Shown here one piece after another: positions 2,861-56,788 of a stretch of DNA of 64,000 bases; the stretch's first letter is position 1; each line of letters begins with the position of its first letter. The position numbers and the translations under genes are program-made. The notes beneath the pieces were generated by a model. The model did not search any database. It had not been told where the DNA came from and worked only from the letters and a program-made list of their open reading frames with translations. The stretch comes from Candidatus Multivorans sp. (lineage in GTDB: Bacteria; Acidobacteriota; Thermoanaerobaculia; Multivoradales; Multivoraceae): the NCBI GenBank assembly GCA_965205095.1, contig OZ242040.1, positions 455,787 through 519,786 of the forward strand. The letters are read 5' to 3'.

Positions 2861-3772
2861 TCACGGATCACACACCGTGTTGAGAGTCCATTCGCCGTCT
2901 ACCACGGATGCTCCTGAGACCGAGCAACCACGACGCCGGATCCTCTCCATCTTTCGGCCCAAGTCGAATCGTTCGTCCGAGAGGAACTCGGTCTCTCGTG
3001 CGGACTCGGCGTAATCGAACATGCCTGTCTCGACGACATGTTCGAGCCTCTGCTCGACATCGGCAAGGGAGTCATACAGGTATGCGGGGCTATCTCCGAA
3101 CCACCATCTCAATGTTGACGAGTCTCTGCCGATTGTCGCGAGCAAGGCACCTTGACCCACCCTGACTGTCCCGGCATCCCAGTAGCCGACCAGCATGATC
3201 CTCTTCCCTGCGGTTGCGTGAAAGCCAGGGCTTCCGTCTCGCCCTACAGCCCCACAGAACACCGAGTCGTTCGCGACCATCCGGCCGACCGGGATCAGGG
3301 CGTAGTCGGGCATCAGCGACCGGTGGTGAAGGAGCTGAACATCTCTCAACTCCACGATCACAGAGGGTACGGTGTTCCAATCGAACCCGAACTCGACCGC
3401 GCCGATCGTTGCGGTGACGGCAACATGGGACAGCATGATGGTGGCGTCAAAGTCACCTCTGGATTCAAGAGGCATCCACGCTACGCCGTACCGATTCGGC
3501 GGACAGAATCTCTTGGGCGGCATCTGGCCGTACTCGAGACCATGCTCGGCCGCCGATCCGAACGTCCGGCGGAAGTGGTCGATCTGGTCCTCCAGGTACT
3601 CGATGGCGTCCCATCGGATGGTCGACGGAACCTCGTCGTTCACGATGTCTTCGGCGGGCAACCAGATGGGTTCCTCTTGGAGTTCGGTGGACGACCGGCC
3701 GGGTTCCTCTTGTTGACCACCAGTGCATCCCAGCAGAGCAGTCAAGAGCACGATCCTGATCGTGTAGATCAA
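2861..3772 (-). CDS. lipoprotein with internal repeats; ends at an in-frame TGA
   Basis: N-terminal lipobox signal (LLTALLGCTGG). The same reading frame continues past a single TGA (2861-2863) into a paralogous repeat segment. Confidence 0.5.
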   Translation of the reverse strand: MIYTIRIVLLTALLGCTGGQQEEPGRSSTELQEEPIWLPAEDIVNDEVPSTIRWDAIEYLEDQIDHFRRTFGSAAEHGLEYGQMPPKRFCPPNRYGVAWMPLESRGDFDATIMLSHVAVTATIGAVEFGFDWNTVPSVIVELRDVQLLHHRSLMPDYALIPVGRMVANDSVFCGAVGRDGSPGFHATAGKRIMLVGYWDAGTVRVGQGALLATIGRDSSTLRWWFGDSPAYLYDSLADVEQRLEHVVETGMFDYAESARETEFLSDERFDLGRKMERIRRRGCSVSGASVVDGEWTLNTVCDP

Positions 3773-16209: not shown

Positions 16210-16947
16210 CTACTCGACTTCGAGGAGCTCGAGTTCGAAGGTGAGGGCGGCGGCGGGCGGGATGGCTGGCGGCGAGCCGTCCGCGCCGTAGGCGAGTTCG
16301 GCGGGAATGAAGAGTTCCCACCTGGCGCCCGGCTTCATCAACTGCAACGCCTCCGACCAGCCGGCAATGAAGCCGCTGACGGGGTAGGTGGTCGGCTGGT
16401 CCCGGTCATAGGTGCTGTCGAACACCGTGCCGTCGATCAGGGTGCCGCGATAGTGGACGGTAACCGTCTGGTTCGCCGTGGGGCTGTCGCCGCTGCCCGC
16501 GCGGAGTTCCCGGTAGAGGAGACCGGAGTCCGTCTTGACGATGCCCTCTTCCCTGGCCTTCTCGGCAAGGAAGGCGGCGCTCTTGGCGGTGTTCTCCATC
16601 ATGGCCGCCTGTCGCGCCCGGTCGGCGTGCTCCTGCATCTTCTGGTTGAGCTCTCCCAGGACCTCGTCGATCTCGGCCTCCTCGAGGGCGGCTGTACCTT
16701 CCAGGGAGTCCAGGAATCCGCGTAGCAGCAGGTCCTTGTCGAGGTCCAGATCCCCGGCGCCCAGGTTGCTGCCGATGTTCAGACCGATCGCGTAAGAGGC
16801 CTTCTCATCCCACGTTTCGAGGGCTGCCGGCGGGTCGTCGGCCGCGGCAGTGGCAGTTTCCTGCGCGCAGGCGGGCGCGGCGAGGATGAGGGCGAGGAAC
16901 GGGGCAATCAACGGCCAGGGACGGCGTGGTGTCTTCATGCCGCGCAT
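16210..16947 (-). CDS. FKBP-type peptidyl-prolyl cis-trans isomerase (FkpA/Mip-like), periplasmic
   Basis: Signal peptide followed by the FKBP_N dimerisation helix and an FKBP_C domain (VTVHYRGTLIDGTVFDSTYDR...PVSGFIAGW). Confidence 0.8.
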   Translation of the reverse strand: MRGMKTPRRPWPLIAPFLALILAAPACAQETATAAADDPPAALETWDEKASYAIGLNIGSNLGAGDLDLDKDLLLRGFLDSLEGTAALEEAEIDEVLGELNQKMQEHADRARQAAMMENTAKSAAFLAEKAREEGIVKTDSGLLYRELRAGSGDSPTANQTVTVHYRGTLIDGTVFDSTYDRDQPTTYPVSGFIAGWSEALQLMKPGARWELFIPAELAYGADGSPPAIPPAAALTFELELLEVE

Positions 16948-16993
16948 CGTATCCGCAAGAGAGTCGGCGCGATCGCTTCGCTATCCTCGCCGC

Positions 16994-17788
16994 GTGCAGC
17001 CGCTGCAGTTGATCCTCGTGGCACTGGTGCAGGGGCTGACCGAGTACCTGCCGATCAGCTCGACGGCGCACCTCATCCTGCTGCCGCGGCTGTTCGGCTG
17101 GCCGGACCAGGGTCTGGCGGTGGACGTGGCGGCGAACACCGGCACACTGGTGGCCGTTGTCGCGTACTTCCGAAAGGACCTTGCCGTCTACGTGCGGGCG
17201 CTGTTCCAGGGCGGCGAGGCCGGCGACCCCGCTGCGAGGCGGATGATCCCGTTGCTGGCGCTGGCCTCGCTGCCGGTTCTCGTCGTCGGCATCGTGGCGG
17301 GCGACTGGATCGCCGGCGACGCCCGCAGTCCGGGCGTGATCGCCTGGGCGACGATCGGCTTCGGCCTGGTGCTCGGCGCCACGGATCGCTGGGGGGCGCA
17401 AGAGCGCCGGCTGGAGCAGGTGAACTGGCGGAATGCCCTGGTGTTCGGGCTGGCGCAGGCAGCGGCGCTCGTTCCGGGCGCTTCCCGGGCCGGCGTCGTC
17501 ATCAGCGCCGGCCGGTTGCTCGGTTTCGACCGCGAGTCGTCGGCCCGCTTCGCCTTCCTGCTGGCGCTGCCGGTGGGCGTCTTCGTCGCCGGCAAGGACA
17601 GTCTCGACCTGGTGAGCGGCACGTTGCCGCTGTCCCAACTGCCGTCGCTGCTCCTGGTCGCCGCGCTGTCGGCGGTGGTCGGCTACCTGGTCATCGGCGG
17701 CCTGCTCGGCTGGCTCAGACGGCGCAGCCTGCAGGTCTTCGTCGGCTACCGGCTGGCGCTGGGCTCCGTGCTGCTCGTGGTCTTCTAG
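16994..17788 (+). CDS. uppP: undecaprenyl-diphosphate phosphatase
   Basis: VQGLTEYLPISSTAHL and PGASRAG motifs with 8 TM helices. GTG start inferred. Confidence 0.85.
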   Translation: MQPLQLILVALVQGLTEYLPISSTAHLILLPRLFGWPDQGLAVDVAANTGTLVAVVAYFRKDLAVYVRALFQGGEAGDPAARRMIPLLALASLPVLVVGIVAGDWIAGDARSPGVIAWATIGFGLVLGATDRWGAQERRLEQVNWRNALVFGLAQAAALVPGASRAGVVISAGRLLGFDRESSARFAFLLALPVGVFVAGKDSLDLVSGTLPLSQLPSLLLVAALSAVVGYLVIGGLLGWLRRRSLQVFVGYRLALGSVLLVVF

Positions 17789-19544
17789 CCCGCATATTTC
17801 ACCGCGTGATCCAGTTCGGCCTTGCTGGGGTTGTTGCCGAGCAGTATCGGCGTCAAGCGGACCGGTCTGTCGGGTTTCACGGATCCGGCGGTTCCGATCG
17901 GCGGCTTTGGGGGTCGAAGATCGTCCAGGCCGTTGGTTTTCGACGGCAGGCAGAGGCGCCGAGGCGCACCTCGACGGCCGGTCTTTGCAGCAGGCGCGAG
18001 AGTTGGGGGGGAATCCCCCGAGGCTCAGGCAGCCGGTCGGTAGCGGGGTCGCTTGGCGAGGTTGTCAAGCGCGGCTTGGAAGTCGGTCTGCCAGGGGAAG
18101 GCGGAGGGCATTGCGAGGCGGATGCGTCGGTGGGTGATGCGTAGCTGGGCGGCGATCTTGAGCAGTTTGAGGCGGATGGTCCCGCACTGTGCGCGGGCGA
18201 ACTGGGTGCCGGCGAGGGCGATGCGCCGCAGAGCGGCCATGAGCACGTAGGCGAAGCTGGCCCAGTAGAGGCGCATCTGATTGCCGGCGATGGTCCTGGT
18301 CGAGGTGCGGTCGGCGAACAGGTCGAGCTGCTGCTCCTTGATGCGATTCTCCATGTCGCCGCGGGCGCAGTAGAGCTTCTCGTAGAGGTCCCGTTTGCCG
18401 GACCGGCTCGGCTTTAGGCTGGTGACCACGAAGCGCGGATTGCGTCCCCTGGGCAGCCACTCCGCCTTGCCCACCACGCGCCTCTTGCGAGACCAGGAGG
18501 ACAGCGTCCGGTGCCGGAACTCGCGGAACCGGCGCGAGGCCTCGCCTCTCTCCAGACAGCGCCGCCGGGACTTCCTGAGCGCCTTCTCGATGCGGCGCTC
18601 CAGGCGCTGATTGCGCGCCAGCCCGAACACGTAGTCCACGCCCTGTGCCTCGCACCACGCCATGATCTCCTCGCGGGCGAAGCCCGAGTCTCCCCGCAGG
18701 ATGATCCGGGTGTCCGACCAGACCGAGCGAATCTGCGGCACGATCCGACGAAGCTCCTCCACCGTGCCGGCGCTGGCGTCCCGATTCGACCTCCGCAGCC
18801 GGGCCAACAGCAGGTGCTCGCCGCAGAACATGTACAGCGGCAGGTAGCAGTACGAGCGATAGAAGCCGTGGAAGAACCGACCCTCCTGGGCGCCGTGCAG
18901 CGGATCGTCCGTCGCGTCGAGGTCCAGAACGATCTCCTCAGGCGCAGAATCGTGAGACTCCAGGAAGACGTCCACCAGCAGCCGGTCCAACGACTCATGA
19001 TCCGCCGCGATCCGCTTGTAGCGATCGCTCTGGGCCTGCTCCGGACGAGACAGCTCCAGCCGATTCAGACCGCTCGGAGAAGCCAGCGGATTGCCCCGGT
19101 CGCGCAGCCGACGACGATCTCCACCCGTGATGTCCGACTTGCCCACCAGAAGAGCCATCAGCCTGGAACGGCGAAGCTGATCGTGGTCATTCAGGTCCTC
19201 GTAGCCCAGCGCCACACCGTAGATCCGCTGAGACACCAGGTCCTGCACCGTGTGCTCCACCGCTGACGGATCGCGACAATCCCCAAAACAGCACGCCAAC
19301 CGCCTCATCAGCCCCAGACAAGCGTCCGTCTCCCGAAGCAGAAGACCGCCACCCTCCGAGGTCAGATCGCCGCCGTCGAAACCAGCCGTCACCCGACGAC
19401 GACCGTGGAAGCCAAACTCAAGCTGCGACGAAGTACACTCTGTCTTCACGGGTCTCTCTCCTGTGGATCTCCCAAATGCTTGTGAACACTTGGATTATCC
19501 GCCGGAAGAGACCCGATCTCAAAACCCTCGGTGAAATATCCGGG
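17789..19544. mobile_element. IS1380-family insertion sequence (about 1.76 kb) flanked by a 4-bp CTAG direct repeat
   Basis: Imperfect 16-bp terminal inverted repeats (CCCGCATATTTCACCG at 17789-17804 and CGGTGAAATATCCGGG at 19529-19544). CTAG sits on both flanks (17785-17788, 19545-19548). A single DDE transposase lies inside. Confidence 0.8.
18025..19449 (-). CDS. IS1380-family DDE transposase
   Basis: A 474-aa protein with an N-terminal LEFGFHGRR...SEGG motif and a DDE core, which is the characteristic IS1380 transposase architecture. Confidence 0.85.
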   Translation of the reverse strand: MKTECTSSQLEFGFHGRRRVTAGFDGGDLTSEGGGLLLRETDACLGLMRRLACCFGDCRDPSAVEHTVQDLVSQRIYGVALGYEDLNDHDQLRRSRLMALLVGKSDITGGDRRRLRDRGNPLASPSGLNRLELSRPEQAQSDRYKRIAADHESLDRLLVDVFLESHDSAPEEIVLDLDATDDPLHGAQEGRFFHGFYRSYCYLPLYMFCGEHLLLARLRRSNRDASAGTVEELRRIVPQIRSVWSDTRIILRGDSGFAREEIMAWCEAQGVDYVFGLARNQRLERRIEKALRKSRRRCLERGEASRRFREFRHRTLSSWSRKRRVVGKAEWLPRGRNPRFVVTSLKPSRSGKRDLYEKLYCARGDMENRIKEQQLDLFADRTSTRTIAGNQMRLYWASFAYVLMAALRRIALAGTQFARAQCGTIRLKLLKIAAQLRITHRRIRLAMPSAFPWQTDFQAALDNLAKRPRYRPAA

Positions 19545-19552
19545 CTAGCGCG

Positions 19553-19652
19553 GCAGAATCGTCGCCGCTTCGCGGCGCGTTCTCTCCACGGGTCAGAAGA
19601 CCCGCGGTCACCTGCCTGCGGCGGCGGCGGGTCGGAAGACCCGCGCACCCAG
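19553..19652. repeat. REP/BIME-like composite repeat (modules ATCGTCGCCGCTTCGCGGCGCG + 2x GGGTC(A/G)GAAGACCCGCG)
   Basis: Copies of the same modules occur at 29920-29990, 39300-39410, 40190-40330, 48600-48770, 49775-49860 and 50895-50985. Confidence 0.6.
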
Positions 19653-19663
19653 TTGGCCGGCAG

Positions 19664-24552: not shown

Positions 24553-24605
24553 GCCGGAGCGTAGCGCAGCCCTGCGGGCAGCACGTCGACTGACACTGCC
24601 TTCCC

Positions 24606-24645
24606 CGGAAGCCGGCCGGAAGGCCGGCGCACCGACACCCGAAGG
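24606..24645. repeat. REP-like module GCCGGCCGGAAGGCCGGCGCACCGACA
   Basis: Near-identical copies at 32690-32720 and 39368-39398; variants at 48693-48715 and 49778-49800. Confidence 0.55.
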
Positions 24646-26238: not shown

Positions 26239-26533
26239 TCTGCCGTCTCCCGAACCGGTCGTTGACCGGAGTCTCGTCTCGTCGTCCGTTGTCGCCTGAC
26301 TCGCCGAACGGCAACCACCGCCCGTCGAAGCGGCGGCAGCTTACCGGATGCTCGAAACGCCCTGAAACCGCGAACGGCCCGGAGCCGTACAACGTTTCGG
26401 CACCGGCGGGGAACATGCGACAATGCCGCGGCGTTGCATGCTCCCGGCGTCACCAGCCGGTCGAAAGGCCTTTCCCACCCAGTTTCCGCGGCGCGGGCTC
26501 ACGGCGCCGTCCAGCGACCGGAGGTTCAGCTTC

Positions 26534-29500
26534 ATGATCGTCTCCCGTACCGCCTCAGGCGCAACCCTGCGCATCGCCGCCCTGATCGCCGTCCTCTCGG
26601 CAGCCCCCGCGACGGCCCAGACCGGCGAGCCAACGAAGCTGCTTCGCTTCCCGGACCTGTCCGGCGACCGGATCGCGTTCACCTATGCGGGCGACATCTG
26701 GCTCGCCTCGGCGGAAGGCGGCGCCGCGAGACGGCTGACTTCCCATCCCGGTCTGGAGCTGTTCGCGAAGTTCTCGCCGGACGGCTCGCAGATCGCCTTC
26801 ACCGGCCAGTACGACGGCGACGAGCAGGTCTACGTCGTGGACACCGCGGGCGGCGCGCCAAGGCAGTTGACCTTCTATCCGGCGGCCGGACCGCTCGCGC
26901 CGCGCTGGGGCTACGACTACCAGGTCTACGGCTGGTCGCCCGACGGCAAGTCCGTGCTGTTCCGGTCGCTTCGCGACGGCTGGGACCTGGGCGACACGAA
27001 GCTCTTCCTTGTCGACACGGCCGGCGGCCTGCCGCGAGCCCTGCCGATGCCCGAGTCCGGCGGCGGCGACCTCTCGCCGGACGGAAAGCGCGTCGTCTAC
27101 TCGCCGGTGACCCGGGACTTCCGGCACTGGAAGCGCTATGAAGGCGGCTGGGCGCAGGACCTCTGGATCCTCGACATCGAGAGCCTGGAGTCGATCCAGG
27201 TCACGGACCACAAGCGCTCCGACCGCGATCCGATGTGGATCGGCGACACGATCTACTTCTCGTCCGACCGCGACGGCACGCTGAACCTCTACGCCTACGA
27301 CACGGCCTCCGGCGACATCGAGCAGCTCACCGAAGAGGACCGCTGGGACGTGCGCTGGCCCAGCGCGGACAAGGCGAACGGGCGGATTGTCTACGAGAAG
27401 GCCGGTTCGCTCGAGGTCTTCGACGTCGCATCGGGCAGCGCCCGTCCGGTCCCGATCCACGTGCCGACGGACCAGCTTGCCCGCCGGCCCAGCCACGTGT
27501 CCGCGGCAAACGGGGTCTCGGGCTACTCGCTCAGCCCGAAGGCGAACCGGGCCGCCTTCTCCGCCCGCGGCGACATCTTCAGCGTGCCGGTCGAGCACGG
27601 GCCGACCCGCAACCTGACCCACAGCTCCGGCGCCAACGACCGCGATCCGGCCTGGTCGCCCGACGGCCGGCGAATCGCCTTCACCTCCGATCGCAGCGGC
27701 GAAACGGAGATCTGGGTGGTCGACCAGGACGGCAGCGGCGAACCGGTGCAACTCACCGAGGGCAGCGTCGGACGCCACTACAACAACCTGCTGTGGTCGC
27801 CCGGCAGCGACCGCATCGCCTTCATCGACCAGCAGGGGCGGCTCGGGATCGTCGACGCAGGCGACCGGAACGGCGACGGCGCGGCGACCGGGCCACGGGA
27901 GATCATCGAGGTCGCCGACGACTCCCGGCCCTTCGGCACCAGCTACGACTGGTCGCCGAAAGGGGACTACCTGGCGGTCGAACTCGGCGACCCGAACGAG
28001 TTCGGCTCGATCCACCTGTTCGAGGTCGAGAGCCGGACGCTCACCCGCGTGACGTCCGAGATGTGGAATGACTTCTTCCCCGTCTTCGGCGCGGGCGGCG
28101 ACTACCTCTACTTCCTCTCCGACCGTCAGTTCCAGCCGCAGATCGGCAGCTTCGAGTACAACTACGCCGCCGATCGCGAGACGTACATCTACGCGCTCGC
28201 CCTGCGCGAGGACACGGCGCATCCCTTCCCGCCGCGGAGTGACGAGGTCGAGATCGAGGAAGAAGAAGACGACGAGGAGGACGGCGACGGCGGCAAGGAG
28301 CACGAGAGCGACGACGACAGCGACGAGGAGGAGGACGGGAAGGACGGTGACCGGATCGACCTCGACGGCATCGCAGGGCGCGTGGCCCGCGTCCCGGTCG
28401 ACGCGGACAACTACTTCGGCCTCGGCGCCGCCGAAGGCAAGCTGCTCTACGTGCGCGGCGGCGCCGGCTACCTGGGCCGCTCCTCCGACGTCCAGACCGA
28501 GGTCTTCTCGTACGACCTCGACAAGCGCGAAAGCAAGAGCCTGGCCAAGGGCATCGGCGGCCTGGTCCTCTCCGGCGACCGCAGAAAACTGCTCGTCAGC
28601 GAACGCGGCAGCTTCCGGCTCCTCGACGTTGGCGGCGGCGAGGCGAAGACCATCTCCCTCGCCGGCCTGGCCGTCGACCGGGTGCCGGACGAGGAATGGG
28701 CCCAGATCTTCGACGAGGTGTGGCGCCGGTTCCGGGACTTCTTCTACGCCCCGAACATGCACGGCTACGACTGGGAGGCGCTGCGCGAGCAGTACCGGCC
28801 GCTGCTAGCTCACGTCGGCCACCGCAGCGACCTGAACTACCTGATGAGCGAGATGGTCGCCGAGCTGAACGTGTCCCACGCCTACGTCAGCGGCGGCGAC
28901 TACGAAGCGCCCGACCGGCCGCGCGCCGCCCTGCTCGGCGCCCGCTTCGAACTCGACGAGGATGCCGGTCGCTACCGGATCGCCCGCATCTTCGAAGGCC
29001 AGAACGAGGAGCCCCGCTACCGCTCGCCGCTCACCGAGATCGGCGTCGACGTCGACGCGGGCGACTACCTGTTCGCGATCCAGGGCCGCGAGCTGACGCC
29101 GGACACGAACCCGTTCCAGCTCCTCCGCGAGGCCGGACGGGGACCGCTGGAGCTGACCGTCGATTCGAGCGCCGACCGTGGCGAGGCGAAGAACGTCCTC
29201 GTCGATCCCATCGCGAGCGAGGACGCGCTGATCTACCTCGCCTGGACCGAGCGCGCCCGCGGCATCGTCGAGGAGCTCGGCGGCGGCCGGATCGGCTACC
29301 TCCACATCCCCGACATGTCGGCGAGCGGCATCCGGGAGTGGATCAAGTGGTACTACGGCCAGGTCCGCAAGGACGCCATGGTCGTCGACGTCCGCTCGAA
29401 CGGCGGCGGCAACGTGTCGCCGATGATCATCGAGCGGCTGCGGCGCGAGACGCTGATGCTCGACTTCGAGCGCAACCGCGACTCCGTCGACACCTCGCCC

Positions 29501-29893
29501 GGCGGCGTCTTCCACGGCCACCTCGTCTGCGTGATCGACGAGGACACCGCCTCGGACGGCGACCAGTTCGCGTACCAGTTCCGGCGCGCCGGGCTGGGAC
29601 CGATCGTCGGCAAGCGGAGCTGGGGCGGCGTCGTCGGCATCTACGGCCGGGCGCCGCTGATCGACGGCGGCTCCGTCAACGTGCCCGAGGCCGGCTCCGC
29701 CGACCCGGAGGGCAACTGGGTGATCGAGGGCTACGGCGTCGACCCGGACATCGAGGTCACGAACCTGCCCCGCGACATCCTCGAAGGACGGGACCCGCAA
29801 CTCGCGAAAGCCGTCGAGCTCCTGCTCGAGAAACTGGAGGAAGATCCGCGGACACTGCCCGGCCGCCCGGCCGACCCGATCAAGACGCCATAA
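26534..29893 (+). CDS. tricorn-protease-like S41 peptidase (WD40-like beta-propellers + PDZ + S41 catalytic domain)
   Basis: Signal peptide; repeated FSPDG/WSPDG beta-propeller blades; C-terminal S41 domain (GGGNVSP.., KRSWGGVVG). Contains a 35-aa acidic low-complexity insert (EIEEEEDDEEDGDGGKEHESDDDSDEEEDGKDGD). Confidence 0.8.
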   Translation: MIVSRTASGATLRIAALIAVLSAAPATAQTGEPTKLLRFPDLSGDRIAFTYAGDIWLASAEGGAARRLTSHPGLELFAKFSPDGSQIAFTGQYDGDEQVYVVDTAGGAPRQLTFYPAAGPLAPRWGYDYQVYGWSPDGKSVLFRSLRDGWDLGDTKLFLVDTAGGLPRALPMPESGGGDLSPDGKRVVYSPVTRDFRHWKRYEGGWAQDLWILDIESLESIQVTDHKRSDRDPMWIGDTIYFSSDRDGTLNLYAYDTASGDIEQLTEEDRWDVRWPSADKANGRIVYEKAGSLEVFDVASGSARPVPIHVPTDQLARRPSHVSAANGVSGYSLSPKANRAAFSARGDIFSVPVEHGPTRNLTHSSGANDRDPAWSPDGRRIAFTSDRSGETEIWVVDQDGSGEPVQLTEGSVGRHYNNLLWSPGSDRIAFIDQQGRLGIVDAGDRNGDGAATGPREIIEVADDSRPFGTSYDWSPKGDYLAVELGDPNEFGSIHLFEVESRTLTRVTSEMWNDFFPVFGAGGDYLYFLSDRQFQPQIGSFEYNYAADRETYIYALALREDTAHPFPPRSDEVEIEEEEDDEEDGDGGKEHESDDDSDEEEDGKDGDRIDLDGIAGRVARVPVDADNYFGLGAAEGKLLYVRGGAGYLGRSSDVQTEVFSYDLDKRESKSLAKGIGGLVLSGDRRKLLVSERGSFRLLDVGGGEAKTISLAGLAVDRVPDEEWAQIFDEVWRRFRDFFYAPNMHGYDWEALREQYRPLLAHVGHRSDLNYLMSEMVAELNVSHAYVSGGDYEAPDRPRAALLGARFELDEDAGRYRIARIFEGQNEEPRYRSPLTEIGVDVDAGDYLFAIQGRELTPDTNPFQLLREAGRGPLELTVDSSADRGEAKNVLVDPIASEDALIYLAWTERARGIVEELGGGRIGYLHIPDMSASGIREWIKWYYGQVRKDAMVVDVRSNGGGNVSPMIIERLRRETLMLDFERNRDSVDTSPGGVFHGHLVCVIDEDTASDGDQFAYQFRRAGLGPIVGKRSWGGVVGIYGRAPLIDGGSVNVPEAGSADPEGNWVIEGYGVDPDIEVTNLPRDILEGRDPQLAKAVELLLEKLEEDPRTLPGRPADPIKTP

Positions 29894-29919
29894 CATCCAC
29901 GAGAGGAACACCCCGAAGC

Positions 29920-29990
29920 CACTGGGTGCACCGGCGCCCCCGCCGGCTGTAGCCGCGGGTCTTCTGACCGGCGGAACAAGACTGACGCGA
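29920..29990. repeat. REP/BIME-like repeat copy (CACTGGGTGCACCGGCGCC...GCGGGTCTTCTGACC)
   Basis: Shares modules with the 19.6-kb, 48.7-kb and 49.8-kb copies. Confidence 0.5.
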
Positions 29991-30028
29991 AGCGGCGAGT
30001 CCGAGCCAATCCCATTCAGGAGAATCCC

Positions 30029-31428: not shown

Positions 31429-33618
31429 GTGAGCCCCGCACATCCCAGCACGGAGCCACGGTCGACGAGAAGCGCCGGGCGCGTCGCGGTCCTCCTGCCC
31501 TGCCTCAACGAGGAGGCGACGATCGGCAGCGTCGTGGGGCAGTTTCAGACGGCCCTGCCCGAGGCCTCCATCTACGTCTGCGACAACGGTTCGGAGGACG
31601 GCACCGCCGCAGCCGCCCGCAGGGCCGGCGCCGAGGTCATCCTCGAGGAACGGCGCGGCAAGGGCCTGGCCGTCCGCCGCCTGTTCCAGGAAGTCGACGC
31701 CGATGTCTACCTGATCGCCGACGGCGACGGCACCTACCACGCCGCCAGCGCCGAGCGTCTCGTTTCCACGCTGGCCGGCCGCTACCTGGACATGGTCGTG
31801 GCGGTTCGCCGGAGCACGGAGCCCGGCGCCTACACGCCGATCCGCCGCCTCGGCAACCGCCTCTTCAGCCTGCTCGCCCGGTGGCGCTGCCACCGAACCG
31901 TCCGGGACCTGCTCTCCGGTTACCGCGCCTTCTCCCGCCGGTACGTCGACGCCTTCCCGGCCCGCTCGGACGGCTTCGAGGTCGAGACGGAGATGACCCT
32001 GTTCGCCGCGTCGGCGGGAATGGCCTGGGACGAGATCGAATGCCCGTACTTCGCGCGCCCGCCAGGGTCGCGAAGCAAACTGCACGCCTTCCGGGATGGA
32101 TTCCGGATCCTCCGAACACTGCTCTGGTCGCCGGCCGCGGCCGCGGGTGAGCAGCGCCTCGGCGCGTTGCGAGCCGCCGTCCTGGTGGCCACCGTAACGG
32201 TCGTCGCCACGGCCTCCTTCCTCGGCCTCAACTGGCTCGCGGCCAACGCCGATCCGGAGCCCGTTGCCGACGCTCTCCGGGCCTCGTACGAGCACCCGGA
32301 ACGCACGCTCAGGGACTCCGCCGAGCGCTTCAACGACTGCCTGCTGAGCCTGATGGCGCTCGACCGCGGCGGCACGACCGTCGAACGCACCGTCTCGCCC
32401 CGGCGCGTGTACCGCTACACCCGGCCCCAGCGCCCCTGCGACGCCCTCGAGCAGCGCCTCAGCCAGGGCGCCGTCGACGACTCCGACTACCTGACCGTCT
32501 TCTACCACCAGTACTGGGCCGGCCAGCGGGTGATGCTGCAGTGGCTGCTGCCGCCGCTCGGCGTCGACGGCCTGAGGCGGACGTTGCGGTTGCTGACGTT
32601 CGGCCTGCTCGGGCTCGGGTTCTTCGGTGCGTTGGGACGCATCGTCCTTCTCTTCATCGGCCGCGAGCCCGAAAGCAAGGCGGGCGGAGGCCGGCCGGAA
32701 GGCCGGCGCACCGACAGGGCGGCGCCGCGCCAGAGCGCCGGCAACTCGAGGCGCTGGCGCGAACACTTCTTCCAGGCGATGGCCCTCGCCGCTCTCTTCC
32801 TCTGCCTGTTCCTGTTCCTCGACCTCGACCGTCGCGCGGAGAGCTTCACAACCGGCGCCTCCAACATCCTGACGCTCGCCCTGCTCGTCGCGGTGCCGGC
32901 GTTCGGGATCGCCAACTGGAAGCCGGGACGCCAGGTCCTCCTCTTCGCCGGTTTCGGGGCCGCGATCGCCTACCACGAACTCCTCTTCGGCAGCGCCCTG
33001 ATCGGCCTGGCCTGCGTGCTCCTCGCCCTCGCCACGTCGCCGCCCCCGACCCACGCCACGGTCGCGGTCGCCCGGAGCTGGTGGCCCGCTCTCTTCCTGC
33101 GCTGCGGCGGCGCCTACGTCGGTTGCCTCAGCGCCGTCTTCCTGCTCCGCGTCGTCATCGCCGAGTTCGTGTTCAGGGAACCCGTGCTGTTCAAGTTCTG
33201 GGACCAGCTCACGCACCGGCTCTACGGAGCGCCCCGTAGCTCGATCCACCCGGACATCGACCCCTTCTACGCCTCCCGGCCGACCATGGAGAGGTTCCTC
33301 GAACGGCTCGGGAACAACCTGGGCACGGTCGGCTTCGGCTCAACCGCGGTCGCCCTCATCCTGATCGCCGGCACCGCACTGACCCTGATCGCCGCGACCG
33401 TCTTCGTCCTGAAACAGCGACGTTCCCTGGAAGAGCCCTGGCGCTGGCTCGGCGTTCTCGCCGCCGGCTGGTCCGTTCCCGCGTGGTACGTCGTCCTCTC
33501 TGCCCACGCGATGGCGCACGTCCCGGTGGCGATCCGCCTGCTGGCGCTGCCCTACGCGGCGGTGGCGGTGCTCATCGTGGGCGTTGCGGTGTTCGGCCGG
33601 CGGACGGAGGTTGTGTGA
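31429..33618 (+). CDS. family-2 glycosyltransferase fused to a large polytopic membrane domain
   Basis: The N-terminal GT2 domain (VAVLLPCLNEE..VCDNGSEDGT..ADGDGT) is followed by more than 10 predicted TM helices. A hydrophilic loop at aa 419-435 is encoded by a REP-like module. Confidence 0.65.
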   Translation: MSPAHPSTEPRSTRSAGRVAVLLPCLNEEATIGSVVGQFQTALPEASIYVCDNGSEDGTAAAARRAGAEVILEERRGKGLAVRRLFQEVDADVYLIADGDGTYHAASAERLVSTLAGRYLDMVVAVRRSTEPGAYTPIRRLGNRLFSLLARWRCHRTVRDLLSGYRAFSRRYVDAFPARSDGFEVETEMTLFAASAGMAWDEIECPYFARPPGSRSKLHAFRDGFRILRTLLWSPAAAAGEQRLGALRAAVLVATVTVVATASFLGLNWLAANADPEPVADALRASYEHPERTLRDSAERFNDCLLSLMALDRGGTTVERTVSPRRVYRYTRPQRPCDALEQRLSQGAVDDSDYLTVFYHQYWAGQRVMLQWLLPPLGVDGLRRTLRLLTFGLLGLGFFGALGRIVLLFIGREPESKAGGGRPEGRRTDRAAPRQSAGNSRRWREHFFQAMALAALFLCLFLFLDLDRRAESFTTGASNILTLALLVAVPAFGIANWKPGRQVLLFAGFGAAIAYHELLFGSALIGLACVLLALATSPPPTHATVAVARSWWPALFLRCGGAYVGCLSAVFLLRVVIAEFVFREPVLFKFWDQLTHRLYGAPRSSIHPDIDPFYASRPTMERFLERLGNNLGTVGFGSTAVALILIAGTALTLIAATVFVLKQRRSLEEPWRWLGVLAAGWSVPAWYVVLSAHAMAHVPVAIRLLALPYAAVAVLIVGVAVFGRRTEVV

Positions 33619-33764
33619 AATCTCGGAGCCAGGACCTTGAAATCTCGGAGCTACTCATCATGAGATTGCGGACTGGAGATTCAGAAATCTCGGAGCTAGT
33701 GATCTTGAAATCTCGGAGTACATTACCCGGAAATTTCGGAGTACACTAACCGGAAATCTCGGAG
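33617..33764. repeat. array of 6 direct repeats GAAATCTCGGAG (last four at exact 23-bp spacing) filling the intergenic region upstream of the DUF4143 ATPase
   Basis: Copies start at 33617, 33649, 33684, 33707, 33730 (GAAATtTCGGAG) and 33753. Confidence 0.75.
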
Positions 33765-33795
33765 TGCAACTGAGACTTCGGTTAGAGTCATCGAG

Positions 33796-34950
33796 ATGAT
33801 CGACCGGACCGAGTACCTCAGGCGAATGGCGACCGCCACGAAGCGATCGCCGGTCACGTCTCTGCTTGGACCGCGCCAGTGCGGCAAGACCACCCTGGCC
33901 CACAAGTTCGCTGCGACCCGCGCGGCAACCCTGTTCGACCTGGGATCGGAGGCGGACGTCCGGCGGCTCAGCAACCCCGAGCTGGTCCTGGGCGAGCTCG
34001 AAGGACTCGTCGTCCTGGACGAGATCCAGATCATGCCCCGCCTCTTCCGCGTCCTCCGCGTCCTTGCCGACCGGCCGGACTCCCACACGCGTTTCCTGAT
34101 CCTCGGCAGTGCGTCCCCGGAGATCGTGGGCGGCGCCGCGGAGTCGCTGGCCGGCCGGGTCGAGTTCATCGACATGACCGGCTTCGACCTGGCCGAGACC
34201 GGCGCAGCCGATCTGCGGAAACTCTGGCGGCGCGGCGGCTTTCCCCGCTCCTACCTTGCCTCTTCCGAAGCCGACAGCTCGCGTTGGCGCAGCGGGTTCC
34301 TCCGGACCTTCCTGCAAAGGGATCTCCCACAACTCGGTATCGCGATTCCTCCCGCAGCAATGCGGCGCTTCTGGACCACCCTGGCGCACTACCACGGCCA
34401 GATCTGGAACGCGGCCAAACTCGGCCGATCGATCGGCGTCTCGGACAAGACGGCTCGCCACTACCTCGACCTGCTGACCGGCGCCTTCATGGTCCGCCAA
34501 CTCCAGCCCTGGTTCGAGAACACGGCCAAGCGCCAGGTCAAGGCGCCCAAGACCTACATCCGCGACACCGGCCTCCTGCATTCGCTACTCGGCATCGGCA
34601 AGGACCAAGAACTCCTGGGTCACGCCCGCGTCGGCGCGTCCTGGGAGGGCTTCGCCATCGAGCAGGTCTTGAGCGCCCTCGGCCAACCCGATGCCTGGTT
34701 CTGGGCCACCCACGGCGGCGGCGAACTCGACCTGATGGTCCTTGCGCGCGGCCTCCGCATCGGCTTTGAAATGAAATTCAGCGAGGCGCCCAAGGTCACC
34801 ACGTCGATACGCAACGCAGCCGAAACGCTGGCGCTCGACCACCTCTTCGTCGTCTGCCCCACGCGGCACACCTACCCGGTGACCGAGAAGATCACTGTGC
34901 TGTCGGCAGGCGACATTCCCGGCTTGCGCGACCGGGTCGAGGCTCTGTAA
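33796..34950 (+). CDS. AAA+ ATPase with C-terminal DUF4143 (COG1373-type)
   Basis: Walker A LLGPRQCGKTTLA, Walker B VVLDEIQ, and a conserved DUF4143 region (...KTYIRDTGLLHSLLGI...). Confidence 0.75.
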   Translation: MIDRTEYLRRMATATKRSPVTSLLGPRQCGKTTLAHKFAATRAATLFDLGSEADVRRLSNPELVLGELEGLVVLDEIQIMPRLFRVLRVLADRPDSHTRFLILGSASPEIVGGAAESLAGRVEFIDMTGFDLAETGAADLRKLWRRGGFPRSYLASSEADSSRWRSGFLRTFLQRDLPQLGIAIPPAAMRRFWTTLAHYHGQIWNAAKLGRSIGVSDKTARHYLDLLTGAFMVRQLQPWFENTAKRQVKAPKTYIRDTGLLHSLLGIGKDQELLGHARVGASWEGFAIEQVLSALGQPDAWFWATHGGGELDLMVLARGLRIGFEMKFSEAPKVTTSIRNAAETLALDHLFVVCPTRHTYPVTEKITVLSAGDIPGLRDRVEAL

Positions 34951-35597: not shown

Positions 35598-38312
35598 GTG
35601 ACCGCCGAGACTTCAAGCATGATGGCCCGCTCTGCCGCGACTGGTAACTTGGCTTCCATGCCACGAGACCGACGCGCGTTCGCTCTGCTGAGCGGTCTCG
35701 CGCTGCTTCTCCTTTCAGCCGGCGCCACGCTCGCCCAGACGCCCTCCCAACCCAACATCATCGTCATCCTCGCCGACGACCTCGGCGTCGAGACCCTGGG
35801 CGTCTACGGCGGCACGTCCTACGAAACGCCCGAGCTGGACCGGATCGCCGCGGAGGGGATCCGGTTCGAGAACGGGCACTCGCAGCCGTTGTGCACGCCG
35901 ACCCGGGTCAAGCTGATGACGGGGCTGCACAACTACCGGAACTACCGGGAGTTCATGGAACTCGACCCGGCGGACGTCACGTTCGCCCACGTGCTGGCGC
36001 AGGCGGGGTACCGGACGGTCATCTCGGGCAAGTGGCAGTTGACGAACAACCTCTACGTGGTTCACGAGGGCGCCTCGCCGCAGCAGGCGGGGTTTGACGA
36101 GCACCGGCTGTGGCAGGTCCGCCGGGAAGGGCGCGGCTCACGCTACTGGGGGCCGACCCTGGTGACGAACGACCGGAAGGAGACCTGGGGCGAGGACGCC
36201 TTCGGGCCGGATCTGACGAACGACTTCGTGCTCGACGCGATCGACGAGCACGCGGCGGCGGATCCCGCGAGCCGCGAGCCGCTCTTCATCTACTACCCGA
36301 TGGCGCTGCCTCACGACCCGTTCGTGACGACGCCGCACGACCCGAACGCCGAGTCGAACCAGGAGCGGTTCGCGGCGATGGTGGCCTACATGGACCACCT
36401 GGTGGGCCGGGTGCGAGCGAAGCTCGTCGAGCACGAGCTGGACCGAGACACGCTGCTCCTGTTCATCGGCGACAACGGCACCTCGACCCGGATCACGTCG
36501 GTCCGCGACGGCCGGGAGGTCCCGGGCGGCAAGGGGCGTTCGCTCCAGACCGGCAGCCACGTGCCCTACCTCGCCTGGTGGCCGGGCACGATTCCGGCCG
36601 GGCAGGTGAACGAGACCCTGGTCGACGTCGGCGACGTGTTTCCGACGCTGATCGAAGCGGCCGGCGCCGGCCTGCCGCCGGGCCTCGACCTGGACGGCGA
36701 GAGCCTGCTGCCGATGCTCAAGGGCGGACCCGCCCTCGACCGCGATGCCCTGTTCATCCACTACGAATCGCGCTGGTACGCGGGTCCTCCGGCGCGCTAT
36801 GCCTTCGACGAGCGCTTCAAGCGCTACGACAACGGCCGGCTGTTCGACCTTCTAGCCGACCCGAACGAGCAGTCGCCGCTCGACGCCGCGAGCCTCGCGC
36901 CGGAAGACGCCGCCCGCGTAGAGGCGATCGACACCCTGCTCGCCTCCAAGCCAGGAGCGATCCGCACCGCCGGCGCCTGGCGGCCGCCCACACCCGGCGT
37001 CAACCGCTGGACGCCGCCCGCCCACCGGCCGAACATCCTGCTCTTCATCGCCGACGACATGACGTACAGCGACGCCGGCGCCCTGGGCAATCCCCAGGTC
37101 CACACCCCGAACCTCGATCGCCTGGCCGAGCAGGGGACCACCTTCACGCACATGTACACGGCGACGGCCATGTGCTCGCCGACCCGGCACATGCTCTACA
37201 CCGGCCAGTACCCGGTGCGAAGCGGCGCCTACCCGAACCACGCCAAGGCCAACGAGGGCACGAAGAGCGTCGTCCACTACCTGCGCGGCCTCGGCTACCG
37301 GGTCGGCCTGGCCGGCAAGTCGCACGTGGCGCCGCAGGAGGTCTACCCCTTCGAGAAGGTGGCGGGCCGCGACCTGGACCCGGGCCGGATCGGCGAGTTC
37401 ATCGGCCGCGACGCGGAGCAGCCGTTCGCGCTGATCGTCGCCTCGACCGAGCCCCACCAGCCCTGGAGCAAGGGCGATCCGTCGCGCTACGACGCGGCGT
37501 CGCTCAAGTTGCCTCCCTACTTCGTCGACACGCCGGAAACCCGCGAGGCCCTGACCCGCTACTACGCCGAGATCACCTTCATGGACGGCCAGCTCGGCCA
37601 GGTCCTCGAACAGCTCCGGGAGCACGCCGCGCACGAGAACACCCTGACCATGTTCTACAGCGAGCAGGGGATCAGCGGCCCGCTCGCCAAGTGGACGCTC
37701 TACGAGGCGGGCATCCGCACCTCGCTCGTGGCCCGCTGGTCCCGCCGGATTCCGGCCGGCGAGACGTCAGCCGCGCTGCTCCAGATCAACGACCTGCTGC
37801 CGACCTGGATCGACGCCGCCGGCGGCGCCGTGCCGCCCGAGATCGAGGGCGAGAGCATGCTCGACCTGCTCCTCGAGCCGGGCCCAAAGCACCGCGACGT
37901 CGTCTACGGCATCCAGACCACGACCGGCATCATCGCCAACCTGGAGCCCTACCCCATCCGCTCGATCCGCGATGAGCGTTACAAGCTGATCTGGAACATC
38001 GCCCACGAGAACCGGTTCACGAACCTCGTGACAGAGGAGAACCGCGACGGCTTCTACTTCTCGTGGCGGGACGCGGGCGAAACGGATCCGGCGGCCCAGG
38101 CGCTCTACGAGCGCTACCAGCACCGGCCGGAGTTCGAGTTCTTCGATCTGGAGGCGGATCCGCACGAGATGACGAACCTGGCGGACACACCGCAGCACCA
38201 GGAGCGGATCGCCTCGCTGCACAAGCAGTTGCGCGCATGGATGGAAGATCAGGGCGATCTCGGGCTGGAAACCGAGATCGAAGCCCCGGAGCACCAGTCG
38301 CGGCCGCGCTAG
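35598..38312 (+). CDS. tandem double-sulfatase (two complete sulfatase domains in one polypeptide), secreted
   Basis: Signal peptide. Domain 1 has IIVILADDLG and CTPTR; domain 2 has ILLFIADDMTY and CSPTR. Both carry the C-x-P-x-R formylglycine motif. The start may be Met at 35658. Confidence 0.75.
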   Translation: MTAETSSMMARSAATGNLASMPRDRRAFALLSGLALLLLSAGATLAQTPSQPNIIVILADDLGVETLGVYGGTSYETPELDRIAAEGIRFENGHSQPLCTPTRVKLMTGLHNYRNYREFMELDPADVTFAHVLAQAGYRTVISGKWQLTNNLYVVHEGASPQQAGFDEHRLWQVRREGRGSRYWGPTLVTNDRKETWGEDAFGPDLTNDFVLDAIDEHAAADPASREPLFIYYPMALPHDPFVTTPHDPNAESNQERFAAMVAYMDHLVGRVRAKLVEHELDRDTLLLFIGDNGTSTRITSVRDGREVPGGKGRSLQTGSHVPYLAWWPGTIPAGQVNETLVDVGDVFPTLIEAAGAGLPPGLDLDGESLLPMLKGGPALDRDALFIHYESRWYAGPPARYAFDERFKRYDNGRLFDLLADPNEQSPLDAASLAPEDAARVEAIDTLLASKPGAIRTAGAWRPPTPGVNRWTPPAHRPNILLFIADDMTYSDAGALGNPQVHTPNLDRLAEQGTTFTHMYTATAMCSPTRHMLYTGQYPVRSGAYPNHAKANEGTKSVVHYLRGLGYRVGLAGKSHVAPQEVYPFEKVAGRDLDPGRIGEFIGRDAEQPFALIVASTEPHQPWSKGDPSRYDAASLKLPPYFVDTPETREALTRYYAEITFMDGQLGQVLEQLREHAAHENTLTMFYSEQGISGPLAKWTLYEAGIRTSLVARWSRRIPAGETSAALLQINDLLPTWIDAAGGAVPPEIEGESMLDLLLEPGPKHRDVVYGIQTTTGIIANLEPYPIRSIRDERYKLIWNIAHENRFTNLVTEENRDGFYFSWRDAGETDPAAQALYERYQHRPEFEFFDLEADPHEMTNLADTPQHQERIASLHKQLRAWMEDQGDLGLETEIEAPEHQSRPR

Positions 38313-39298
38313 CAGTCGCCCCCCGCAGGCGGCGGATAGTACGTCTCCCCAACCGTGCGGCCACCGTTGCCGTTCGGTCGCTCCAGTCGACCTGACAGTG
38401 CCTGCCGCGCCAGTTGGTTCGCAGCGATCAGCGAAACGACCGCCAGGCCGCCGATGTAGTCGGCCAGCGCCTTCAGGTCGCCGCCATCGGCCAGTTCCAG
38501 CGCGTTGATGTAAGCCGTCTTCTCCTGCGCCGTGATCACCGGCGGCGGCAACGAGCGCTTCAGGTACGCCCAGGCCATCAGGAGCCGGGACACCCTGCCG
38601 TTGCCGTCCTGAAACGGATGACAGCACACGAAGCGGTGGTGTAGCCAGGCGGCCTCCGCGTTGACGGGATAGCCGCCTGTGCCCACAAGCTCATGCTCGG
38701 CAAAGAAACGGTCCATCTCGGGTTGCACCTGCTCAGGCGGGCAGTACTCGTGAACCCGGCCGTCGGCGCGTCTTGGGTTGTTGGGCTGCATCTTCCACTG
38801 GCCCCTGGTCCTGAACGGAACCGCCACCCGGCGGCCCTCCAGGTCCACACCGGCAACCGTCTCCTGGTGGCGGGTCAACAGTTGATGCCAGCTCTTGACC
38901 ATGTGCTCCGAAAGCGCGCGTCCGCTCGCGACATCTTCGAACACCATGTCGTAGGCGGCTTCCTGGTCCTCGAGCAAGCCGCGGATCGTGTCGTCGCCAA
39001 GCGCCTCGACCGTGTGTGCGCCTGCCACGCCCGCAAAGCCCTCCGCCACCAACTGCTCGGTGACCCCGTGACGCATCGTGTAGAGACCCTCGATCTGCCC
39101 GGTCTCGACAGCGAATGCCCGAACGCGCTCCCGGAGCCAGGCCTGCATGAAGCGCTCCTTGGCGGCATCACGCTTGAGCTCAGCCAGGTGCCGTGCCCAG
39201 GCCGTCTCCTGTTCCACCTGTCCGGGCAACGCCCACGACTCGGCGCCTTCGGGAATTCCCTCAAGGGGCGTCCAGCGCCACGGCTCATCGGCGGTCAT
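38309..39298 (-). CDS. Fic/DOC family protein
   Basis: Canonical Fic motif HPFQDGNGRVSRLL. Confidence 0.85.
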   Translation of the reverse strand: MTADEPWRWTPLEGIPEGAESWALPGQVEQETAWARHLAELKRDAAKERFMQAWLRERVRAFAVETGQIEGLYTMRHGVTEQLVAEGFAGVAGAHTVEALGDDTIRGLLEDQEAAYDMVFEDVASGRALSEHMVKSWHQLLTRHQETVAGVDLEGRRVAVPFRTRGQWKMQPNNPRRADGRVHEYCPPEQVQPEMDRFFAEHELVGTGGYPVNAEAAWLHHRFVCCHPFQDGNGRVSRLLMAWAYLKRSLPPPVITAQEKTAYINALELADGGDLKALADYIGGLAVVSLIAANQLARQALSGRLERPNGNGGRTVGETYYPPPAGGDC

Positions 39299-39299
39299 C

Positions 39300-39410
39300 T
39301 GAACATTCTAGGGCTAGCGGGCGCCGTATCGTCGCCGCTTCGCGACGCGGCTATCTGGCCGCCAGCGCCGGCAGCCGGCCAGAAGGCCGGCGCACCGACA
39401 GTCGGACTGT
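39300..39410. repeat. REP/BIME-like composite repeat (CTAGCGGG..ATCGTCGCCGCTTCGCGACGCG..GCCGGCCAGAAGGCCGGCGCACCGACA)
   Basis: Modules shared with the 19.55-kb, 24.6-kb and 32.7-kb copies. Confidence 0.6.
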
Positions 39411-48599: not shown

Positions 48600-48770
48600 C
48601 CCTCGGTGTCGCAGGTCCGCTGGGTGCGCGGGTCTTCTGACCCGCCCTCGGGCGGAGCCGCAGGGCGGCTCAGCCCGGACAATAGAGCCGCCGGCCGGAG
48701 GCCGGCGACGATGCTGGACGCCGCCTTCGGCGGCAGCGGGTCAGAAGACCCGCGCACCCAGCGGGTCCAG
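48600..48770. repeat. REP/BIME-like composite: inverted pair of the GGGTCAGAAGACCCGCGCACCCAG module around a GCCGGCCGGAGGCCGGCG core
   Basis: 48623-48650 (reverse orientation) and 48738-48766. The 45-bp stretch at 48714-48760 is nearly identical to 49800-49848. Confidence 0.65.
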
Positions 48771-50894: not shown

Positions 50895-50985
50895 GAAGCG
50901 GACGCCGGCCCTGCGGCGGGCGCGATCTGACGGCCGCCTGCGGCGGCAGCCGGCGGGGGCGCCGGCGCACCCAGTGGTCAGCCTC
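50895..50985. repeat. REP-like copy (CGGCGGCAGCCGGCGGGGGCGCCGGCGCACCCAGTGG)
   Basis: Module similarity to 40240-40330 and 48738-48766. Confidence 0.45.
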
Positions 50986-51987: not shown

Positions 51988-52117
51988 TCGAGAAGTCGAC
52001 GCGCCTTCCAGACCCGGCCGGAGCACCCGGCCATGGGAGCCAACAGCGCGGACCTGCAGTGAGATCAGAATCGGAAACCAACGCGAGAACCCGCGTCAGG
52101 AGAGTCAGGAGAGCCCC

Positions 52118-56646: not shown

Positions 56647-56701
56647 GACGTCGGGCCTCGCCGGAAACAGAGGAGACACGTCCGGTGGGGTCAACGTGCA
56701 T

Positions 56702-56784
56702 AACCTTCCGATTGGCCGGCCTACAACCTTTCAATCAGGCGACCCCTAACCTTGCAATCAGACGGCGCCCAACGTTACGATCAG
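56702..56784. repeat. array of 4 direct repeats AACCTTnCnATCAG at exact 23-bp spacing, ending 4 bp before the start codon of the second DUF4143 ATPase
   Basis: Copies at 56702 (AACCTTCCGATTGG), 56725 (AACCTTTCAATCAG), 56748 (AACCTTGCAATCAG) and 56771 (AACGTTACGATCAG). Confidence 0.75.
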
Positions 56785-56788
56785 CCGC

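Follow-up and report, generated by a model that had tools for sequence, protein, structure and literature searches.

REP-type repeats with REPIN-like doublets in Candidatus Multivorans and related Thermoanaerobaculia, and the RAYT genes that they flank

Short GC-rich hairpin repeats are scattered through a 64,000-nucleotide stretch of contig OZ242040.1 (positions 455,787 to 519,786, referred to here as the window) from Candidatus Multivorans sp., an uncultured member of the Acidobacteriota class Thermoanaerobaculia. We consider it very probable (about 85%) that these are repeats of the repetitive extragenic palindromic (REP) type, including doublets resembling REPINs (REP doublets forming hairpins) and arrays resembling bacterial interspersed mosaic elements (BIMEs), that they make up a family of the Thermoanaerobaculia and Ca. 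Multivorans, and that they are driven by REP-associated tyrosine transposases (RAYTs). The same repeats flank a RAYT gene in related uncultured Acidobacteriota, and for this reason the element can be counted among an ordinary kind. An earlier examination of the letters of the window, the sequence-only reading, had called the repeats REP/BIME-like, and this description is supported by short GC-rich palindromes, a conserved flanking tag and a mostly extragenic location.

The sequence-only reading had described three recurring modules, A, B and C, at ten or more places. Each was searched for in the window by pattern matching with up to three mismatches, and the chance level was taken from dinucleotide-preserving shuffles. 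Module A was found at 24611, 32690 and 39374, without mismatches in each case, module B at 19627 (+), 48620 (-), 48736 (+) and 49822 (+), and module C at 19558, 39328 and 40198, compared with 0.00-0.06 matches expected per search in the shuffles. A repeat finder combined with a hairpin scan gave extra copies at 29919-29998 (-), 40224-40313 and 50910-50979, which bear a third type of stem, "D" (GCCGGCG/CGCCGGC). A profile hidden Markov model of the long unit described below, trained on 80 long units from other genomes, recovered the known sites and found no other convincing copy in the window. The unit count of the window is ten, a density of 0.16 per kb; all ten sites are real and none is expected by chance. 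The near-identical stretch that had been reported at 48714-48760 and 49800-49848 also exists, but the common identical part is 44 nt long, not 45.

The core REP consists of a 7-bp GC-rich stem and a 4-nt purine loop (AGAA, GGAA, GGGA or GGGG), directly adjoined by an invariant tail, GCACC(C/G)A. Read on the opposite strand, it becomes a 5'-GGTGC foot followed by the hairpin, which for the A-type is 5'-TGTCGGTGC-GCCGGCC-TTCT-GGCCGGC. At least three stem subfamilies lie side by side in the window: A (GCCGGCC/GGCCGGC, tail GCACCGACAG), B (GCGGGTC/GACCCGC, tail GCACCCAGCGG) and D (stem as above, tail GCACCCAGTGTG). In subfamilies A and D the hairpin is directly preceded on its 5' side by CGCCGGA(A/T), which places CGGA one base from the stem; subfamily B has CGGCGGCA in place of CGGA. 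Usually the REP hairpin is preceded by two others in a long unit of about 80 nt, namely hp1, which is module C and reads GCCGGCC-TKCG-GGCCGGC or GTCGCCGC-TTCG-GCGGCG, and hp2, which reads GCCGCC-TKC-GGCGGC. Given this usual order, the modules are pieces of one unit, and modules A and B, together with type D, are stem variants of the same REP hairpin. All three modules therefore exist as had been stated, but as hairpins within this single unit and not as independent elements.

To keep the stem out of the definition, membership was also assigned by a stem-blind rule (N7-RRRR-N7-GCACC[CG]A), and 259 of the 286 candidates so collected were fully paired. Stem positions 3, 5, 6 and 7 have two Watson-Crick alternatives each, CG 137 and GC 130 at position 3, GC 248 and AT 27 at position 5, CG 177 and TA 93 at position 6, and CG 182 and GC 88 at position 7, with mixed pairs nearly absent. 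Since the stem changes come in compensated pairs, the hairpin itself is maintained, beyond mere sequence. What is found is a short palindromic stem-loop in many copies, as in REPs.

The repeats occur as singles, as inverted doublets and in arrays, in agreement with the statement that they stand alone or combined. The doublet of the window (48616-48765, no strand assigned) is REPIN-like and consists of two B-type REPs in inverted orientation with their tails outward and with perfect 29-bp arms at 48617-48645 and 48736-48764. Structure prediction, which had been named as a check on the modules, folded this doublet as single-stranded DNA or RNA into one long hairpin (-78.8 and -129.9 kcal/mol, respectively; z about -12, with -11.9 for the DNA fold) that retains three local hairpins in its interior. 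No flanking duplication was found at the window doublet. Besides it there are 16 further inverted doublets in other genomes; the two units of the 17 pairs lie 69-146 bp apart, and 15 of them fall at 110-146 bp. Six doublets from six genomes could be aligned at 82% identity with a consensus long hairpin containing 12 compensated pairs, and switches of stem type affect both arms jointly. Two inverted REPs, a short spacer and a single hairpin are the build of a REPIN. Longer arrangements are found next to RAYT genes: locus L120 has five doublets in tandem with a 286-bp period beside such a gene (1704-2733), and loci L119, L121, L122 and L128 also have arrays beside one. With their conserved hp1 and hp2 as linkers these arrays correspond in general build to the BIMEs of Escherichia coli. 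Same-strand arrays were seen as well, with four units at a 121-bp period or direct REP triplets at a 33-36-bp period, and tandem unit arrays lie at L120 1704-2733, L119 3736-4121, L038 7449-7537 and L077 7401-7497. Array copy number varies between assemblies having an identical RAYT protein (L119 vs L120, L121 vs L122), differences which may be due to assembly collapse.

A pattern for the HUH and tyrosine motifs (HUH...Y), applied to all open reading frames (ORFs) of the fetched loci, gave one RAYT candidate. It lies in L038 (Ca. Multivorans sp.), where repeat matches were more numerous than at any other locus. The protein of about 225 aa reaches 83.8 bits with the NCBIfam model REP_Tyr_transpos (cutoff 80) and 2e-8 with Pfam Y1_Tnp. 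In the PDB it matched a single entry, E. coli TnpA-REP (4ER8, 5e-7), and its motifs are HVHVL (HUH) and YIWLNP (Y). The gene is flanked on both sides by A-type doublets (L038:2102-2238 and 2953-3111), the interiors of which are alignable with that of the window doublet. A database search returned 4000 homologues of this RAYT at E <= 1e-10, several of them named RayT by their source. Genomic contexts were retrieved for eight homologues through identical protein sequences alone, with no use of the DNA motif, and seven of the eight were flanked by hairpin-GCACC units, or eight of nine distinct RAYTs with L038 included. The units usually stand on both sides and often in arrays. Only one stem type is present at each RAYT locus: GCCGGCC at L038, GCGGGTC or GCGGGCC at P0010 and P0025, GCGGACC at P0020 and P0026, GCCGGCG at P0006, and GCCGACG at P0015 and P0017. 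Unit density within 500 bp of RAYT genes is 3.95 per kb, 25 times that of the window. RAYTs have been described as genes that are present in one copy, are inherited vertically and are each paired with a separate REP family (PMC5581495, PMC3116915). The RAYT genes found here are 60-80% identical to one another and lie in three conserved neighbourhoods, as expected of vertically inherited RAYTs (Bertels 2017, PMC5581495). The cognate RAYT that the sequence-only reading had proposed to look for is thus present in relatives, flanked by the same repeats, but not within the window. In locus L129, a REP unit (3222-3244) stands in frame inside the RAYT gene itself (3001-3738) and explains why P0017 is longer there by about 16 aa; tnpA-REP genes of subclass 2.4 have also been reported to contain REP insertions (PMC6006769).

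The distribution of the repeats was scanned with a degenerate pattern covering the three stems, in 8-kb blocks of GTDB representatives with one genome per species. The motif was present in at least 117 blocks from about 30 genomes. Among the matches listed, all but five blocks come from metagenome-assembled genomes (MAGs) that bear the label Thermoanaerobaculia, Ca. Multivorans, or sponge-derived Acidobacteria or 'Holophagales', and the five outliers are consistent with the few chance matches expected of a 40-bit pattern. Over 5 kb the window itself shares 93% identity with OZ244786.1 (Ca. Multivorans sp.), and with OY762911.1 it shares 86-90%, which places its source within this lineage. Because the repeats occur throughout the lineage, they are neither local to this contig nor an artefact of collapsed repeats in the assembly, the two outcomes by which the earlier reading would have fallen. 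Outside coding-like segments lie 70% of 279 units, in 23% of the sequence. In the lineage blocks, as by density in the window, the family is high in copy number and mainly extragenic, as REPs are.

Gain and loss were followed by an all-against-all comparison of the loci, in which a site was called filled if it had a unit and empty if its flanks were joined. Eight filled/empty pairs of orthologous sites were obtained, with flank identities of 83-97%; the inserts measured 69-101 bp where one unit was involved and about 207-276 bp where there were several. In the pair L079/L085, an 88-bp three-hairpin unit lies between convergent stop codons that adjoin in the relative. No consistent flanking target duplication was found at the filled sites, and 3-nt repeats occurred in single cases only. 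Two other candidates were discarded: window position 45463/45464, a candidate clean empty site opposite the L070 doublet, where the L070 spacer exceeds the element and exact boundaries are unreadable, and the extra 650 bp in L107 opposite window 38312-38330, which is a small gene.

Several observations weigh against a RAYT-driven REP family. The canonical REP foot is GT[AG]G at 0-2 nt from the stem (PMC6006769, PMC3733652), and the flank here departs from it, reading 5'-T(G/C)GGTGC with GTGC abutting the stem; the putative GGTGC foot is close to GTGG/GTAG, not identical. No RAYT was found in the 64-kb window with the HUH/Y pattern, tblastn or Pfam on candidate ORFs; a weak tblastn match at 57067-57198 was rejected, being antisense to a DUF4143 ATPase gene. 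The link to RAYTs runs through homology to relatives, of which the closest, L107, has 93% DNA identity, so that the arrangement of a REPtron, a RAYT flanked by the same REPs, is a finding from related genomes and not from the window's own. One RAYT homologue, P0012 (L130), is without flanking units. Judged from sequence, the filled/empty pairs would fit movement of the HUH type, yet insertion and precise deletion are inseparable in them, and the L014/L110 pair has an imperfect 9-bp flanking repeat (2 mismatches) that is not an HUH-like product. Unit orientation is unrelated to local GC skew (80 vs 72 for singletons against the skew of their block, p = 0.57) and gives no support for lagging-strand targeting; from this absent signal the 7:1 plus-strand excess among the window units is left uninterpreted.

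It could be supposed instead that the hairpins are regulatory or structural RNA elements of the host (terminators, 3'-end stabilisers or hairpins occluding ribosome-binding sites), selected at each site and immobile, and that their proximity to RAYT genes is incidental. This seems improbable to us, although part of the evidence would suit it. On the hairpin-then-GCACC strand the loops are UNCG-like (TTCG, TGCG) and GNRA-like (GGAA, GGGA), and one interior hairpin has a T-rich tail, but the REP hairpin is without a T-run and a terminator scan gave 4 hits vs 4.2 expected from shuffles. No Rfam family matched anywhere in the window at gathering thresholds; a relaxed search returned only RF01721, at 26.8 bits where its gathering threshold is 50 (E = 0.04 over 2.6 kb), and this we treat as chance similarity between GC-rich multi-hairpins. 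The units do lie near gene ends, and beyond the 3' end of a single gene antisense units outnumber sense ones (60 vs 33, p = 0.007), a bias that is a hint only because the loci are not independent. Tail and stem recur almost unchanged, in either orientation, at loci unrelated to one another. Even with a putative hupE start codon situated in a REP tail, site-by-site selection has to be set against in-frame copies within genes, presence or absence that varies at orthologous sites, and the 25-fold enrichment around RAYT genes with one stem type each. A regulatory RNA would account for a possible secondary role of the hairpins, not for their origin.

Readings that keep the repeats mobile but name another enzyme fare worse still. 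Miniature inverted-repeat transposable elements (MITEs), mobilised in trans through terminal inverted repeats by a DDE transposase such as that of the neighbouring IS1380-type insertion sequence (IS), are very unlikely: the doublet does have perfect 29-bp terminal inverted repeats, but most copies are single units without an inverted partner, and the contact of one copy with the IS has to be read together with IS ends (CCCGCATATTTCACCG) that are unrelated to the repeat ends and with the IS's own CTAG duplication. The imperfect 9-bp repeat at one filled site would suit a DDE transposase, whereas no duplication flanks the doublet and none recurs consistently at the filled sites, and the only gene consistently flanked by units encodes a Y1/HUH RAYT. 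Terminal inverted repeats matching an IS, joined with target duplication, as expected of MITEs, were therefore not found. There is a similarly slight chance that the cognate enzyme is one of the atypical HUH proteins of Acidobacteria, class 3 TnpAY1 with a CnGA foot or 'TIRYT', rather than a class-2 RAYT. Only atypical HUH systems are on record for Acidobacteria (PMC3733652, PMC6006769), where a previous survey found only 'TIRYT' genes flanked by terminal inverted repeats and no REP families of the present type (PMC3733652), and class 3 proteins with their hairpins are known there, with about 600 copies in Solibacter usitatus (PMC6006769). The CGGA located one base from the stem in subfamilies A and D recalls the class 3 foot, but subfamily B does not have it, and the invariant element, GCACC, is on the opposite side of the hairpin. 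The L038 protein, moreover, is above the NCBIfam cutoff for RAYTs, has E. coli TnpA-REP as its best PDB match and carries a Y-x3-NP motif vs Y-x4-Q in class 3. Anatomy disposed of CRISPR, attC and tRNA-derived readings, with no spacers, no integrase and no tRNA-like fold.

The REP repeats as understood here can be placed among known systems. With the REP/BIME elements of E. coli and their TnpA-REP (RayT/YafM), together the REPtron (PMC3479197, PMC6006769), they have in common short GC-rich imperfect palindromes with a tag beside the stem, a mostly extragenic location as singles, inverted pairs and arrays, and an HUH/Y1 gene, presumably single-copy here too, that is flanked by repeats and for which 4ER8 is the best structure match. 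They differ in the tag (GTAG in E. coli, GGTGC here), in a perfect 7-bp stem with a 4-nt purine loop in place of a longer bulged stem, in the two additional hairpins with which the REP usually travels as a unit of about 80 nt, in the size of the RAYT (165 aa in E. coli, 225 aa here with an N-terminal extension of about 90 aa), and in the host, an uncultured Acidobacteriota lineage. The REPINs and three RAYTs of Pseudomonas fluorescens SBW25 (Bertels & Rainey 2011, PMC3116915; PMC3337134) are comparable in their inverted doublets folding into a long hairpin, in RAYTs in conserved neighbourhoods, which here too are presumably single-copy, and in several REP families per genome, each probably matched in the present lineage, as in SBW25, to its own RAYT paralogue; we infer the coexistence of three RAYTs in one genome, the contexts coming from different assemblies. 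Unlike in SBW25, three conserved local hairpins are contained in the spacer of about 90 bp, and many copies are single three-hairpin units and not doublets. The superfamilies of REPs tagged GTAG or CGTC, for example SMAG of Stenotrophomonas (Di Nocera 2013, PMC3733652), are likewise abundant tagged stem-loops downstream of genes, with some in-frame copies in genes and with RAYT association of the GTAG class, but the GGTGC tag matches neither. The class 3 TnpAY1 hairpins of Solibacter usitatus (Quentin 2018, PMC6006769) are also from Acidobacteria and are high-copy atypical hairpins flanking an HUH gene; in contrast, the enzyme described here scores as a RAYT (class 2-like Y-x3-NP) and the tag is GCACC/GGTGC and not CnGA. 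Pneumococcal BOX and Neisseria Correia elements are similar in form only, with a modular multi-hairpin build and transcription together with neighbouring genes. Neither is known to be associated with a RAYT, and Correia elements duplicate a TA.

Gene calls in the window relied on third-position GC and Pfam, and by these calls six or seven of nine window sites are intergenic. At 19.6 kb, where a bacA-like and a pyruvate kinase gene converge, the plus strand of the intergenic space carries the hp1 hairpin (module C) of a composite unit, ATCGTCGCCGC-TTC-GCGGCGCG (19558-19579), a degenerate B-type REP hairpin, CGGGTC-AGAA-GACCCG, without the GCACC tail (19589-19606), and an hp2-like segment with the B-type REP hairpin GCGGGTC-GGAA-GACCCGC and a GCACCCAGTTGG tail (19613-19655). 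The long unit at 24571-24637 (+), which ends in the A-type REP GCCGGCC-GGAA-GGCCGGC-GCACCGACA, lies between two minus-strand genes, one for malate synthase and one glcF-like, and the start of the glcF-like gene is placed at 24550. Between a tricorn protease gene and a PQQ/BamB-like gene there is a composite of module C, a degenerate B hairpin and the D-type REP GCCGGCG-GGGG-CGCCGGT-GCACCCAGTGG (29919-29998, minus strand). Module C with an A-type REP at 39328-39402 (+) occupies the space between the start of a Fic gene and the stop of an ABC transporter gene, and the doublet at 48.6-48.7 kb has convergent genes on its two sides. At 50910-50979 (+), a long unit carrying a D-type REP stands between the stop of a peptidyl-prolyl isomerase gene and a hupE-like gene. 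The putative GTG start of this hupE/ureJ-like gene (50974), its only plausible start, is within the GCACCCAGTGG REP tail and is followed by a signal peptide; the REP hairpin therefore occupies the place expected of a ribosome-binding site.

Most copies are intergenic, as the sequence-only reading had it, with three assigned to coding sequence; two of these, at 32.7 and 40.2 kb, are firmly inside genes, the third only probably. The solitary A-type REP at 32684-32716 (+) is in frame in the ORF of a family 2 (GT2) glycosyltransferase, where the copy at 32690 encodes GGRPEGRRTDR between two hydrophobic segments. At 40198-40338 (+), module C is combined with a D-type REP whose 3' arm and tail are duplicated in tandem over 51 bp, and the whole lies in frame and antisense in the linker between the transmembrane and nucleotide-binding domains of an ABC transporter (39429-41432, minus strand). 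By Pfam domains, the inter-domain gap of this exporter is 114 aa, vs 64 aa in the neighbouring paralogue. The orthologue in L107 (93% identical) has the same insert and that in L070 (87%) a diverged linker; the window linker has an additional 51-bp in-frame tandem copy (period 51, 1.9 copies). The complete long unit at 49776-49851 (+), with hp1, hp2, a B-type REP and tail, is in a divergent region on the antisense strand relative to a nucleoside hydrolase gene. A clear hydrophobic core of a signal peptide lies immediately downstream of the unit. Among in-frame starts, only ATG 49899/49905 come with a Shine-Dalgarno sequence, and the unit is probably within the coding sequence at its N-terminal (5') end. 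Within 49776-49905, the REP unit would probably supply the arginine-rich n-region TRCRRRRRQERAG of the signal peptide, and the same REP reading frame in the ABC transporter linker yields ...HTGCAG...

The IS1380-family insertion sequence mentioned above (17789-19544, minus strand) is not part of the repeat family. It is intact, with 16-bp inverted repeats at 17789-17804 and 19529-19544, a flanking CTAG duplication and a DDE_Tnp_1_4 transposase at 18025-19449(-), and its insertion point is exactly the stop codon of the bacA/uppP-like gene (16850-17788). Its right end adjoins the left edge of the 19.55 kb repeat. The contact noted before is real, but it exists only because the element inserted beside the repeat. 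Elsewhere in the window, about 6-7 tandem copies of a 23-bp repeat (33616-33765, consensus TGAAATCTCGGAGCTAGTGATCT) directly precede a gene for a DUF4143/AAA_14 ATPase (33796-34950) and could be an operator or iteron-like array. The region 51845-58126 may be a defence or mobile island; it contains an ORF of 1523 aa with ResIII/DEAD helicase domains and a weak sacsin-like match, followed by a second DUF4143/AAA_14 ATPase, and its third-position GC is below that of neighbouring genes. An acidic Asp/Glu-rich low-complexity repeat is present at 28244-28347 within the tricorn-type protease gene (26423-29893).

For a REP family driven by RAYTs, the likeliest mechanism is the following. RAYTs, as domesticated HUH/Y1 enzymes, would be encoded elsewhere in the genome, one per REP subfamily. 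Each would bind its own REP hairpin and foot as single-stranded DNA, cleave and rejoin it, and in this way copy or excise units at extragenic sites without target duplication. The inserted hairpins would be tolerated or might serve as structures in 3' untranslated or intercistronic regions, and now and then would come to stand in frame in a protein linker. That a RAYT acts catalytically on these repeats, the position at which it would cleave and its presence in the window's genome are predictions from sequence, and a benefit of the repeats to the host is likewise presumed. Rather speculative is the further idea that a compact code of RAYT-REP specificity and repeated exaptation of REPs into genes occur here together. 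For the code, at least three RAYT paralogues (60-80% identical) may each read REPs distinguished only by 2-4 compensated stem pairs and by the tail (GACA vs CAG), all with the non-canonical GGTGC foot. For exaptation, the REPs in the ABC transporter linker, the GT2 loop, the signal-peptide n-region, the start codon and the RAYT gene itself may be examples.

The repeat family does not overturn current understanding. REP/RAYT systems are well known in Proteobacteria, and those of Thermoanaerobaculia and Ca. Multivorans are undescribed in the searchable literature; we found no earlier description of this repeat family there, an absence that is not proof. For annotation, the units mean long spurious ORFs, indistinct gene starts and real proteins lengthened in frame, and in MAG assemblies they are likely break points. 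The near-identical RAYT paralogues with minimally different hairpins are a natural experiment on how HUH enzymes read the stem and the foot.

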